A DNA stretch of 41,227 nucleotides from a virus (taxonomy: Duplodnaviria; Heunggongvirae; Uroviricota; Caudoviricetes). Location of the stretch: the IMG/VR virus record IMGVR_UViG_2541047931_000011, positions 1-41,227 of that record. One strand, given 5' to 3'. The stretch's first letter is position 1; every line of letters starts with the position of its first letter. Positions 32,765 to 37,326 of this stretch are shown here, piece by piece. The notes beneath the pieces are model-generated. The model did not search any database. It was not told where the DNA came from and was given only the letters and a program-made list of their open reading frames with translations. Made by a program: the position numbers and the translations under genes.

Positions 32765-34117
<1,353 letters not shown>

Positions 34118-34167
34118 TCCCCACCTCAATCTCAGTAACCCAAAAACAAACTATTTTCCGTTTAAAA

Positions 34168-34235
34168 ACAATGGAGTTTGTTTTTTGCACCTCCATTTAC
34201 AATATTTCTTGTTTACAACATACAATCTTTCTTGT
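34168..34235. promoter_or_regulatory. Left operator region: three 434-type operators, with pL
   Basis: acaatggagtttgt 34168-34181, acaatatttcttgt 34199-34212, acaatctttcttgt 34222-34235, upstream of nutL and N. Confidence 0.7.
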
Positions 34236-34269
34236 AATTTTAAGCCATCAGCAGGACGCACTAACCACC

Positions 34270-34300
34270 ATGAAGGTGATGCTCTTAAAAATTTAGCCCT
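34270..34300 (+). promoter_or_regulatory. nutL (boxA-like TGCTCTTAA and boxB GCCCTGAAGAAGGGC)
   Basis: boxB hairpin at 34286-34300 and boxA-like element at 34270-34278, about 120 nt upstream of N. Confidence 0.75.
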
Positions 34301-34420
34301 GAAGAAGGGCAGCATTCAAAGCAGAAGGCTTTGAGTAGCGCGAAATGCAGCTGCAAGACAGCAACCGTGGAGATAAGCATCACGGCGCGTTACTCAAAGC
34401 TAACTGACAGGAGAATCCAG

Positions 34421-34747
34421 ATGGATGCACAAACACGCCGCCGCGAACGTCGCGCAGATAAACAGGCTCAATGGAAAGCAGCAAATCCCCTGTTGGTTGG
34501 GGTAAGCGCAAAGCCAGTTAACCGCCCTATTCTCTCGCTGAATCGCAAACCGAAATCACGAGTAGAAAGCGCACTGAATCCAATAGACCTTACAGTGCTG
34601 GCTGAATACCACGAACAGATTGAAAGCAACCTGCAACGTATTGAGCGCAAGAATCAGCGCACATGGTACAGCAAGCCACGCAGTGAAATGGGGGTGACTT
34701 GTGTTGGTCGCCAGAAAATGAAATTAGGCAGCAAACCACTTATTTGA
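34421..34747 (+). CDS. N: Antitermination protein N (lambda)
   Basis: Protein begins MDAQTRRRERRADKQAQWKAANPLLVGVSAKPVNRPILSLNRKPKSRVESALNPIDLTVLAEYH, matching lambda N including the arginine-rich boxB-binding motif; the track ORF has a 30-codon upstream extension. Confidence 0.9.
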   Translation: MDAQTRRRERRADKQAQWKAANPLLVGVSAKPVNRPILSLNRKPKSRVESALNPIDLTVLAEYHEQIESNLQRIERKNQRTWYSKPRSEMGVTCVGRQKMKLGSKPLI

Positions 34748-34825
34748 GGTGATATATGGAAGAAGAATTTGAAGAGTTCGAAGAGCATCCGCAGGATGTG
34801 ATGGAACAATACCAGGACTATCCGT

Positions 34826-35026
34826 ATGACTACGACTATTGATAAGAATCAATGGTGTGGACAATTCAAACGATGCAATGGATGCAAGCTGCAATCGGAA
34901 TGCATGGTTAAGCCTGAAGAAATGTTTCCTGTAATGGAAGATGGGAAATATGTCGATAAATGGGCAATACGAACGACGGCAATGATTGCCAGAGAACTTG
35001 GTAAACAGAATAACAAGGCTGCCTGA
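34826..35026 (+). CDS. ral: Restriction alleviation protein Ral-like
   Basis: 66-aa ORF immediately downstream of N; sequence recalled as lambda Ral (not verified); SD AGGA upstream. Confidence 0.55.
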   Translation: MTTTIDKNQWCGQFKRCNGCKLQSECMVKPEEMFPVMEDGKYVDKWAIRTTAMIARELGKQNNKAA

Positions 35027-35091
35027 TGGTGGCCTTTATTTTTGGCATAAACAACAGAATAAACACTGCACTGAATTATTTGAGGTGAGAT

Positions 35092-35562
35092 ATGACAAAA
35101 TCATGGAGCGTACCTTTTCCTGAATCAGAAACTGAACATGATGGAATGCCTGTTTTCTGGAGATTCCAAGCGACAGTTGAAGAAGATGGAATCAAAATAT
35201 TCGCACTTCAATATATAGCTTTTCATCAGACAGAGCATTATGCATGGTTGGTTCCTGCGCATTGGATTGTTGATTTTAAACCAGCACCAAATCAGTGGTT
35301 ACGGGAATGGAAACAAAGGAGAAATAGATATGCAATTAAGAAAGTAGCAAAAAATGCAGAAAGATCTTTTGCATTCCCAACGAAGAAACTTGCCATTGAG
35401 AGTTTATTGCGCCGGAAGAAATACCGTTTAATGAGAATCAAACAAGATTTGGCTGTTGTATCAACTCTTGTTGATGGGATGAAGAATATTGATACATCAA
35501 CACCAGATATTGAATATAACTTTGGACACAACCAAGAAACAGAAAATTGGGTATTTTATTAG
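35092..35562 (+). CDS. Hypothetical cargo protein (156 aa) in the pL operon
   Basis: Strong SD GAGGTGAG; AT-rich coding sequence; no TM segment or recognised motif; sits where lambda carries superinfection-exclusion/early accessory genes. Confidence 0.5.
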   Translation: MTKSWSVPFPESETEHDGMPVFWRFQATVEEDGIKIFALQYIAFHQTEHYAWLVPAHWIVDFKPAPNQWLREWKQRRNRYAIKKVAKNAERSFAFPTKKLAIESLLRRKKYRLMRIKQDLAVVSTLVDGMKNIDTSTPDIEYNFGHNQETENWVFY

Positions 35563-35666
35563 TACGAATAAGCACTGTGTATTCATTCCCACGAGTGAAT
35601 ACACGGAGCAATGTCGCTCGTAACTAAACAGGAGCCGACTTGTTCTGATTATTGGAAATCTTCTTT

Positions 35667-35693
35667 GCCCTCCAGTGTGAGGGCGATTTTTTT
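35667..35693 (+). terminator. Rho-independent terminator in the early-left operon
   Basis: GCCCTC-cagtgt-GAGGGC followed by GATTTTTTT. Confidence 0.5.
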
Positions 35694-35705
35694 GACGGAG
35701 GAAAT

Positions 35706-36017
35706 ATGAAATTACGTGTCTGGCATATCCCGCAAGTACCTATGAAACCGTTCATTGTAGAAGTGGCAAGTGTTGAAGAGGGTGTTCGCCTGATGGATGC
35801 ACTGGCTGATTATGACGCCTTTCAGTATGACAACAACATCAAGCCTGACTACTGCAATGCTAACGGCCTTGAGATGTGGGATGAGAGCCTTACCGATGAA
35901 GATTTATCAGAAATGGGGCTTACTGATCGCTGGGTGGATTGGTACAGCGAATGCCAATGTTACGACGACCCACGTAAATATCTCGAAAGCCTGAAAGAAG
36001 AAACATCAGCCGCCTAA
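35706..36017 (+). CDS. Hypothetical acidic protein (103 aa)
   Basis: ATG at 35706 with SD GGAGGAA; the track ORF starts 18 codons upstream, across the terminator. Confidence 0.5.
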   Translation: MKLRVWHIPQVPMKPFIVEVASVEEGVRLMDALADYDAFQYDNNIKPDYCNANGLEMWDESLTDEDLSEMGLTDRWVDWYSECQCYDDPRKYLESLKEETSAA

Positions 36018-36092
36018 GCGCGGCTTTACCGCATACCAATAACGCTTCACTCGAGGCGTTTTCGTTATGCAATCAAATATAAGGAGTTACCC

Positions 36093-36227
36093 ATGATGCA
36101 CTTTCAGCTCGCGGGTAGCGGCGTCATGTCCGCTTTCTACCCGCACGAATCTGAATTATCACGCCGAGTTAAACAATTAATCAGAGCAGCAAAGAAACAA
36201 CTGGAGGCGTTATGCGCAATGAAATAG
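36093..36227 (+). CDS. cIII: cIII-like protein (44 aa)
   Basis: ORF not in the supplied track; SD AAGGAG at 6-nt spacing; MMHFQLAGSGV...ESELSRRVKQLIR resembles lambda cIII MQYAIAGWPV...ESLLERITRKLRD. Confidence 0.45.
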   Translation: MMHFQLAGSGVMSAFYPHESELSRRVKQLIRAAKKQLEALCAMK

Positions 36228-36364
36228 CCATCAATCACCAGATGCTTCGTGCTGCACAGAACAAAGCAGTAATAGCCAGATTTATTGGTGATTCCAAAAT
36301 GTGGCTTGAAGCAAATAAAGCGATGAAATCAGCGATCAACATTCCGTGGTATCGCAGGAAATGA
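36212..36364 (+). CDS. kil: Kil-like host-killing protein (50 aa)
   Basis: ORF not in the supplied track; SD GGAGG; ...AVIARFIGDSKMWLEANKAMK resembles lambda Kil ...ATFIGDEKMFREAVDAYK. Confidence 0.45.
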   Translation: MRNEIAINHQMLRAAQNKAVIARFIGDSKMWLEANKAMKSAINIPWYRRK

Positions 36365-36618
36365 GTTTTACAGATAACTGGTCAGACGAAGAATTCATTC
36401 GTCAGATGAAAGATTTAATCGGTAACGAAGGAGATATTCATGTCACTTGCAACCACAGTGAAGGAGAGCAAGTTACAGAGACGCATGTACACGCAGAAAG
36501 CTCTCTGGTATCGCCATAATGGCGACCGCGAAGGAATGCGGGTATGCCTTAATTTGTCCCGAGTCGAAGTATTAAATCAGCGTTATTTCCTTGGGCCATG
36601 TCCATTCTGAGGTGAATT

Positions 36619-37326
36619 ATGGATTTGAATAAATTCGATGAGCCATTCAGCCCTGAAGATATCGAATGGCGAATACAGCAAAGCGGTAAAACACGCGATG
36701 GAAAGGTGTGGGCTATGGTGCTGGCTTATGTCACGAACAGGGCAATCATGAAACGCCTGGACGATGTTTGCGGCAAAGCAGGATGGCGCAATGAATACCG
36801 CGATATTCCCAACAACGGCGGAGTTGAATGCGGCATATCAATCAAGATTGATTCCGAATGGGTAACCAAATGGGATGCTGCTGAAAACACGCAGGTAGAA
36901 GCCGTCAAAGGTGGTCGTTCAGGTGCAATGAAGCGTGCTGCCGTTCAGTGGGGAATCGGTCGGTATCTGTATAACCTTGAGGAAGGTTTCGCACAAACAT
37001 CTCTCGATAAAAAGCAGGGGTGGCACAGGGCAAAACTGAAGGATGGAACAGGATTTTACTGGCTCCCTCCATCGCTGCCGGGCTGGGCAATGCCAGTATC
37101 AGATAACAAACCATCACCAGAAAATACCAACCAGAAATCTCCATCGGTTGACTGCGAACAAATCCTGAAAGACTTCAGCGATTATGCTTCAACAGAAACT
37201 GACAAGAAAAAACTCATCGAGCGTTATCAGCGTGACTGGCAATTAATGGCTGGCAACGAGGAGGCGCAGGCTAAATGCGTTCAGGTAATGAACATCAGAG
37301 TTAACGAACTAAAACAGGCGGCATAA
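36619..37326 (+). CDS. Rad52/Sak-like single-strand annealing protein
   Basis: 235-aa ORF immediately upstream of ssb in the position of lambda bet; central conserved-looking block (KGGRSGAMKRAAVQWGIGRYLY). Confidence 0.55.
   Translation: MDLNKFDEPFSPEDIEWRIQQSGKTRDGKVWAMVLAYVTNRAIMKRLDDVCGKAGWRNEYRDIPNNGGVECGISIKIDSEWVTKWDAAENTQVEAVKGGRSGAMKRAAVQWGIGRYLYNLEEGFAQTSLDKKQGWHRAKLKDGTGFYWLPPSLPGWAMPVSDNKPSPENTNQKSPSVDCEQILKDFSDYASTETDKKKLIERYQRDWQLMAGNEEAQAKCVQVMNIRVNELKQAA

Follow-up and report, generated by a model that had tools for sequence, protein, structure and literature searches.

A hairpin with compensatory base changes adjoins the 5' end of the small RNA PreS in the early-left operon of lambdoid phages

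Organisation of the early-left region and identity of the locus

The stretch of DNA analysed here (the window) comprises 41,227 nucleotides of a virus of the class Caudoviricetes (IMG/VR record IMGVR_UViG_2541047931_000011, positions 1 to 41,227); its plus strand, at the locus described, represents the early-left (pL) operon of a lambdoid phage. The region encodes a 434-type cI (33084-33716), a lambda-type N (ending at 34747), ral (35026 being its last position and 34826 its first; plus strand), a 156-aa ORF (35092-35562, plus strand) that matches phrog_1636 and is a homologue of HK97 gp45 and 933W L0079, the superinfection-exclusion gene gp17 (PF17420; 35706-36017), cIII (36093-36227), and kil (36212-36364). 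No Pfam, PADLOC or NCBIfam match was obtained for the 156-aa protein. A terminator-like hairpin with a T-run (35015-35045) overlaps the ral stop codon, also in lambda, and the terminator scan predicted an intrinsic terminator at 35665-35693 on the plus strand (stem, 35665-35686; T-run, 35687-35693), tL2a; the 156-aa gene is therefore flanked by terminators on both sides. A second terminator (36041-36060), homologous to tL2B of HK620, lies beyond gp17; tL2a and the second terminator are adjacent in HK97 and HK620, and gp17, which is found between them in the window, is therefore an insertion. In lambda and 933W, ea10 is found in place of gp17.

Between the stop codon of the 156-aa ORF (35092-35562) and the terminator (35665-35692), a perfect 9-bp inverted repeat is read directly in the plus strand and is recovered by repeat search: its left arm (GTGTATTCA) occupies 35577-35585 and its right arm (TGAATACAC) 35596-35604, separated by a 10-nt spacer (TTCCCACGAG, 35586-35595), and the bases directly after the right arm are GGAGCAATG, with no T-run. 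The coordinates and description given in the first-pass annotation match the sequence exactly. Four distinct perfect inverted repeats (stem of at least 9 bp, loop of 3-12 nt), corresponding to eight nested hits, are present in the window, and 100 dinucleotide-preserving shuffles contained a mean of 1.66 such hits (sd 1.7, maximum 9); the bare 9-bp repeat is therefore not significant by itself. The repeat search extends the arms to 17 nt at 82% complementarity.

The locus itself is already known. Positions 35572-35692 of the window are near-identical to the ral-ea10 intergenic region of phage lambda and represent the same locus, lambda PreS/tL2a, in which the hairpin formed by the repeat corresponds to lambda 34013-34040; the window differs by the addition of the 156-aa gene between ral and the hairpin and by the replacement of ea10 by gp17 downstream. 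By megablast, positions 35076-36095 were found at 97-98% identity in H-19B, HK97, 933W and many Stx phages, and in those phages the stretch from the hairpin to the terminator equals that of the window except for one loop base.

In lambda, the ral-ea10 intergenic region encodes an Hfq-dependent small RNA, LPR1, renamed PreS, of about 88 nt, which is processed to a form of about 68 nt (LPR1-S) and whose 3' end is the terminator tL2a; PreS is made in the lytic cycle only, from 10 min post-induction, is absent in lysogens, and activates the translation of dnaN (Silverman et al., bioRxiv 10.1101/2024.10.31.621285). The ends of LPR1 were taken from the published primers P810, P1103, P1104 and P969: the cloning and T7 primers (P810, P1103) begin LPR1 at GAGCAATGTCGC, and the homology arm for the full lpr1 deletion (P969) ends in ...GTGAATACACG (bioRxiv 10.1101/2024.10.31.621285). 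PreS +1 was therefore mapped to position 35606 of the window (lambda 34011), the last paired base of the hairpin, the published +1 being possibly accurate to a few nucleotides only. Based on the near-identity to lambda and these primers, the 88-nt PreS homologue extends from G35606 to 35693 on the plus strand; the processed form of about 68 nt would begin near 35626, and the step from 88 to 68 nt falls in an A/U-rich single-stranded stretch. The core of the PreS seed (TGTTCTGATTATTGGAAA, 35641-35658, plus strand), which is the 18 nt of the published seed deletion (primers P970 and P971), is 100% conserved among the lambda-type loci, and the counterpart of tL2a carries a terminator annotation in HK97 and the name tL2A in HK620. 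A 32-aa ORF (35611-35709) opens at an ATG within PreS (in GAGCAATGTCGC); this ATG is ATA in the P22-type homologues, and the ORF, which is not conserved, is probably non-coding.

The hairpin is not within the published 88-nt PreS (GAGCAAUG to the U-tail of tL2a), which it overlaps by 1-4 nt through its closing pairs, and it is intact in the full lpr1 deletion mutant (P969). The preprint does not discuss the hairpin and gives no route to the 88-nt 5' end (bioRxiv 10.1101/2024.10.31.621285). In the searchable literature, no account was found of a hairpin next to PreS +1 that is under selection for its structure, nor were reports of pL processing sites or a later PreS paper found in the literature searched.

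By comparison with lambda, the 156-aa gene is inserted, its right junction lying exactly at the 5' foot of the hairpin. Lambda reads ...GAATAAACACTGCACTG followed directly by TGTATTCA, with a single copy and no gene; the window reads ...GAATAAACACTGCACTG, then aattat... and the gene, then GAATAAGCACTG and TGTATTCA. The two copies form an imperfect direct repeat on the plus strand: lambda homology breaks after the left copy (35057-35073) and resumes at the right copy (35565-35576), which is directly 5' of the inverted repeat. The GAATAAGC flank is conserved in P22-like contexts, in which it ends a small ORF, and this motif may be an old ORF terminus that was reused as a recombination joint. The proposal in the first-pass annotation that the repeat marks the boundary of the inserted gene thus holds for the comparison with lambda, but the repeat is not tied to the gene and did not arrive with it, since it is present in lambda without the gene and belongs to a cassette that is found behind about 38 upstream sequence clusters.

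RNA fold and covariation of the hairpin

When folded as plus-strand RNA, the repeat is part of a stem-loop of 14 contiguous pairs, C35575-G35606 to C35588-G35593 (35575-35606), which includes G-U pairs at 35576/35605 and 35586/35595 and a 4-nt loop (CCAC, 35589-35592); the stem is A/U-rich. Outside an A-A mismatch (35574/35607), folding and alignment place two further closing pairs, G35572-C35609 and C35573-G35608, which enclose PreS +1 to +4. These outer pairs are invariant (G-C in 32 and C-G in 31 of 32 sequences), hence compatible with pairing and uninformative on covariation. With the outer pairs included (35572-35609), the plus strand folds at -20.2 kcal/mol (z of -6.3), and none of 200 shuffles folds as well. 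The stem is present in the minimum-free-energy (MFE) and centroid structures of 38-, 61- and 146-nt contexts, and the reverse strand of the window hairpin folds more weakly than the plus strand. Loop base 35590 is C in the window; other copies of the same allele read A (CAAC, with variants CAGT and CAAT), rare variants with a different loop excepted, and no effect of this base on the fold is predicted.

Locus scans and blastn searches for distant homologues revealed at least five alleles of the hairpin, all of them located directly 5' of GAGCAAT(G/A)TCGCTCG. Allele V1 (CTGTGTATTCATTC-CAAC-GAGTGAATACACG) is found in lambda, the window, HK97, 933W and HK620; V2 (CTATAGCAGATT-TACG-AGTCTGCTATG) includes a compensated variant in which CAGA/TCTG is changed to CTGA/TCAG; V3 (TAATGACCATT-TTAAT-AGTGGTCATTG) occurs in ST104 and other P22-like phages, V4 (TAATGCGGA...TCCGCATTG) in SEN22, and V5 (TTATCGACTTT-CAC-AGAGAGTCGATAG) at two further loci (L333 and L245). 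In the P22-like Salmonella phages, blastn homology starts exactly at PreS +1 (query position 47, i.e. 35606), and a different hairpin lies ahead of it. Every allele folds well alone (z of -2.6 to -6.3). The helix measures 14+2 bp in V1, and V2-V5 have 11-12 bp and a short set of invariant lower pairs; lambda, in its own context, does not form the lowest helix (CGA/UCG). All alleles share position 35604 as the 3' foot of the main stem, and the 3' foot of the hairpin is never more than 2 nt away from PreS +1.

Most of the loci are more than 95% identical, so that simple conservation carries little information. In independent MFE folds of 49 unique sequences, positions 35596-35604 were paired in 96-98%, with two to five canonical pair types per position. 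A MAFFT alignment that included the conserved flanks (A4) reached the structural register without being fitted to structure, the right arm (35596-35604) corresponding to its columns 38-46; another MAFFT alignment, of 42-mers of equal length (A3), missed that register and was set aside. In alignment A4, 92.3% of cells pair, compared with 63.5% in shuffles, and the covariation score is 0.633 versus 0.151 in shuffles; none of 500 shuffles reached the observed value for either measure. When the partner was slid by 1-3 columns as a control, pairing was 28-47%. Both sides are changed in nine of the 14 pairs (113 cells), and single-site variants are mostly pair-preserving (e.g., U-A to U-G, and U-G to U-A or C-G). 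With about five alleles, the number of independent events behind the covariation is small, and the comparison with shuffles should not be read as a probability; the compensatory changes mark the hairpin as a structured RNA element under selection.

The element is strand-specific. G-U pairs account for 63 of the 393 paired cells in alignment A4, positions that are A-C mismatches on the opposite strand, and most alleles are more stable as plus-strand RNA; the functional form is therefore the pL-sense RNA. The apical pairs A-U, U-G and U-A (35585-35587 with 35594-35596) are almost invariant, and the eight pairs below them are wholly exchanged between alleles; the near-invariance of the apical pairs could mark a determinant of recognition, or could simply reflect common descent. 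The first-pass annotation had offered a protein-binding site or an RNA processing/stability element as alternatives. Covariation, together with G-U pairing only on the pL-sense strand, supports the RNA option, and the protein-binding option is disfavoured as far as a sequence-specific DNA site is concerned, the arms being fully replaced between alleles with pairing kept.

A mobile cassette of hairpin, PreS and terminator

The limits of the conserved unit were determined with the PreS seed as anchor in IMG/VR, by comparison of 102 unique loci. Columns between 35572 and about 35692 have an identity of at least 0.92, those on either side less than about 0.7; the left edge (35572) is the 5' foot of the extended hairpin. 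From this identity step at both edges it follows that the hairpin, PreS and tL2a constitute one conserved cassette of 121 bp (35572-35692, plus strand), and gp17 in the window is inserted at the right edge of it. At about 330 phage loci overall, the cassette is sharply bounded and lies between highly variable genes; a rough clustering of 307 loci gave about 38 upstream and about 25 downstream sequence clusters, and allele V1 alone is joined to 26 of the upstream clusters.

In the window, the main stem ends 2 nt before GAGCAAT and is followed by the seed GUUCUGRUUA and the terminator, and this architecture is the same in all seed-anchored loci. With anchoring on the seed only, the hairpin was found in the same register at 115 of 115 lambda-type and 120 of 120 P22-type loci, and every copy of the hairpin seen elsewhere adjoins PreS; no V1 hairpin was found next to anything but the start of PreS. 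A single locus (L274) that was considered as PreS without a hairpin is a chance 19-mer match, the body of which is not PreS-like. The linkage of the hairpin to PreS is thus obligate among the loci examined. The hairpin alleles and the types of PreS body assort partly independently.

Of 5426 complete E. coli genomes, 2233 (about 41%) carry the cassette, with up to six copies per genome, and it also occurs in P22-like Salmonella phages; in E. coli RefSeq genomes its copies are unannotated or lie under "hypothetical protein". PreS-like sRNAs form a wider family that comprises the lambda type, the P22 type and at least two other body types (e.g., L224 701-800 and L226 701-800). The family has a second, covarying stem (ACAGG/CUUGU, ACGAG/CUCGU, ACAGG/CCUGU) and a conserved core, GUUCUGRUUA, and is not represented by an Rfam model. 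About 17 unrelated bacterial assemblies (loci L347-L372), including Pseudoxanthomonas, Shewanella, Neobacillus, Kitasatospora and Bradyrhizobium, carry the lambda sequence at this locus, with a single-base exception in L347, and several of them on contigs of about 48.5 kb or of low coverage; these lambda-identical loci are almost certainly contamination with lambda DNA. No more hairpin alleles were found in the wider set of genome contigs, in which the matches were mostly lambda contamination and a few chance 19-mer matches.

Proposed role of the hairpin and alternative explanations

Several known classes of element do not describe the hairpin. The statement in the first-pass annotation that the repeat is not an intrinsic terminator is confirmed, for no U-tract is present in any of the five alleles; the A/U-rich stem is followed by GGAGCAAUG in V1 or UGAGCAAU in the other alleles, and it was not reported by the terminator scan. 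A nut site (boxA followed by boxB, a 5-bp stem with a GNRA-like pentaloop) was rejected as well, the stem here being 11-14 bp and the loops variable (CCAC, UACG, UUAAU and others). An Rfam cmscan of 34000-37000 with E up to 10 gave only sub-threshold chance matches, the best near the locus being RyhB with 18.3 bits versus a gathering score of 55. Neither is the hairpin a REP or other dispersed repeat: besides its own arms, the window contains one weak match with two mismatches, within chance. The RalA/RalR system of the rac prophage, which was considered for the adjacency of ral, is unrelated, RalA being antisense-oriented and within ydaC (PMC4041452), and the EHEC anti-sRNAs AgvB and AsxR (EcOnc01-03) are located downstream of PR', outside the pL operon, and have different sequences (PMC4104026). 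Masking of the seed in the precursor, by pairing of a conserved upstream GAAUAA(G) with CUUGUUC of PreS, is not supported: it appears in the 146-nt MFE structure of the window (ensemble frequency of 0.004) and not in the centroid, and this pairing is missing in the contexts of lambda, HK620, ST104 and SEN22.

A search of the window, lambda and ST104 contexts for a sigma-70-like promoter (-35 and -10 hexamers 16-18 bp apart, upstream of +1) gave no sense-strand match. Given this result and the restriction of PreS to the lytic cycle, the simplest origin of the sRNA is its release from the pL transcript. A weak promoter-like site on the minus strand (35581 to 35553; TACACA-17-TAAAAT, 9/12), transcription from which would run antisense into the 156-aa gene, was dismissed: shuffles contained more sites of this kind than the scanned sequence, and the -10 of the site falls in gp45-specific sequence missing from lambda.

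On balance we lean, by a little, towards a role of the hairpin as a cis-acting boundary or processing element for PreS. In this model, transcripts that read through from upstream in the pL operon (from the 156-aa gp45 homologue here, from ral in lambda) would carry the hairpin, which would fold autonomously and reach into nucleotide 1 of PreS; its structure would direct an endonuclease to cut at the 3' foot of the hairpin, which would define where PreS begins, and the hairpin would insulate the folding of PreS from whichever mRNA is upstream. After such a cut, that mRNA would retain the hairpin at its 3' end, or would have none if both arms are cut.

As for the cutting enzyme, the geometry favours RNase III over RNase E as the candidate. 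RNase E prefers a single-stranded, A/U-rich segment with a U two nucleotides after the cut, whereas the 88-nt 5' end reads CACG/GAGC or UGU/GAGC (the slash marking the end) and is predicted to be paired, at variance with this consensus. PreS +1 lies inside the helix (C35575-G35606), with two invariant G-C pairs below it and, in all alleles, 12-13 stacked positions between it and the loop, and a double-strand-specific enzyme such as RNase III would therefore fit better. Against RNase III stand the short helix (11-14 bp with two to three weak outer pairs), which in all alleles is shorter than classical E. coli sites (about two helical turns or 20 bp of double-stranded RNA, in which internal loops may occur), and the absence of the CGA/UCG helix in the lambda context.

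Structures of this kind are already known as intergenic processing and stability stem-loops of phage early transcripts, and mechanistically nothing in the proposed role is unprecedented. At RNase III signals of the T7 R1.1 type, the hairpin is cut near its base, on the 3' side, so that the downstream RNA gains its 5' end and the upstream mRNA retains the hairpin. The PreS hairpin resembles these in being an intergenic hairpin of a phage early polycistronic transcript, with PreS +1 on the 3' side by the A-A mismatch; the T7 signals, however, have about 20 bp, an internal loop and a substantial lower stem, whereas only two to five weak pairs lie below the presumed cut here. Lambda sib, a longer helix over a true terminator (tI), is an established RNase III site through which int mRNA is destabilised; it is likewise an RNA hairpin of the pL transcript, and its fate decides the stability of the upstream mRNA, whereas the PreS hairpin lacks a U-tract, has a shorter helix and goes with a downstream sRNA. 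Hfq-dependent sRNAs of the CpxQ/SroC type, which are released by RNase E, share the terminator of a longer mRNA and are freed by processing, as proposed here for PreS, but the 88-nt 5' end of PreS abuts a helix and has no A/U-rich single-stranded context.

A more specific version of this role is possible, though we regard it as doubtful: the hairpin may be a dedicated, portable signal for sRNA release, the apex of which is recognised by a specific nuclease or RNA-binding protein that licenses the excision of PreS from antiterminated pL transcripts, and the 121-bp unit would then move between lambdoid and P22-like phages as a self-contained module, functional whatever gene is upstream.

Somewhat less probable, but the foremost of the competing explanations, is a passive hairpin with no cutting role, which would protect or insulate by blocking 3'-to-5' exonucleases at the ends of upstream mRNA fragments or the scanning of RNase E into PreS, the PreS 5' end being made independently. 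A stable stem-loop without U-tract just past the stop codon of an ORF, the lower stem of which conserves pairing only and not sequence, agrees with such a function, and REP and intercistronic stabilisers (malE-malF) are comparable post-ORF stem-loops without U-tract that are able to block 3' exonucleases. The PreS hairpin differs from these in that it is not dispersed (one full-length copy in the window) and is co-inherited with the downstream sRNA: it travels with PreS and not with the upstream gene, as is evident from the 26 upstream clusters joined to V1, and its 3' foot is always within 2 nt of PreS +1, a fixed register that an mRNA stabiliser does not need.

It is improbable that the repeat acts as a DNA palindrome, either as the operator of a dimeric protein or as a recombination or cruciform hotspot at which junctions of lambdoid modules arise. 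The repeat is perfect in DNA, and its 5' foot coincides exactly with the left limit of the conserved block and with the point at which, in comparison with lambda, the 156-aa gene is joined; this junction, however, is equally explained by selection for an intact cassette. The arms of the alleles are wholly different and no variable binding protein is linked to them, and the conserved G-U positions are mismatches in DNA or on the other strand.

A signal at the level of transcription, i.e. a PreS promoter that overlaps the repeat, or a pause or antitermination hairpin that acts on RNA polymerase, is slightly more improbable still. PreS +1 is only 2 nt beyond the repeat, and hairpins in nascent RNA can pause polymerase. 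Against this reading, a sense-strand sigma-70-like site is missing in all three contexts named above, a shared -10/-35 is not possible across five unrelated arm sequences, the absence of PreS in lysogens is as expected of a pL-dependent RNA, and no likeness to boxA/boxB is present. A fortuitous, functionless repeat that is conserved only by hitch-hiking with PreS is very improbable and largely refuted by the covariation: although about 1.7 perfect 9-bp repeats are expected by chance per window and most loci are more than 95% identical, five sequence-unrelated alleles fold in the same register and their variants are mostly pair-preserving.

PreS is among the first phage sRNAs shown to reprogram an essential gene of the host (dnaN). 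The covarying hairpin that ends at PreS +1, and that is spared by the published deletion, represents a concrete and easily mutated candidate for a signal in the biogenesis of this sRNA. What had been taken for the boundary of a cargo gene is in fact the edge of the PreS cassette, and PreS appears as a compact mobile unit of 121 bp that is widespread yet unannotated.
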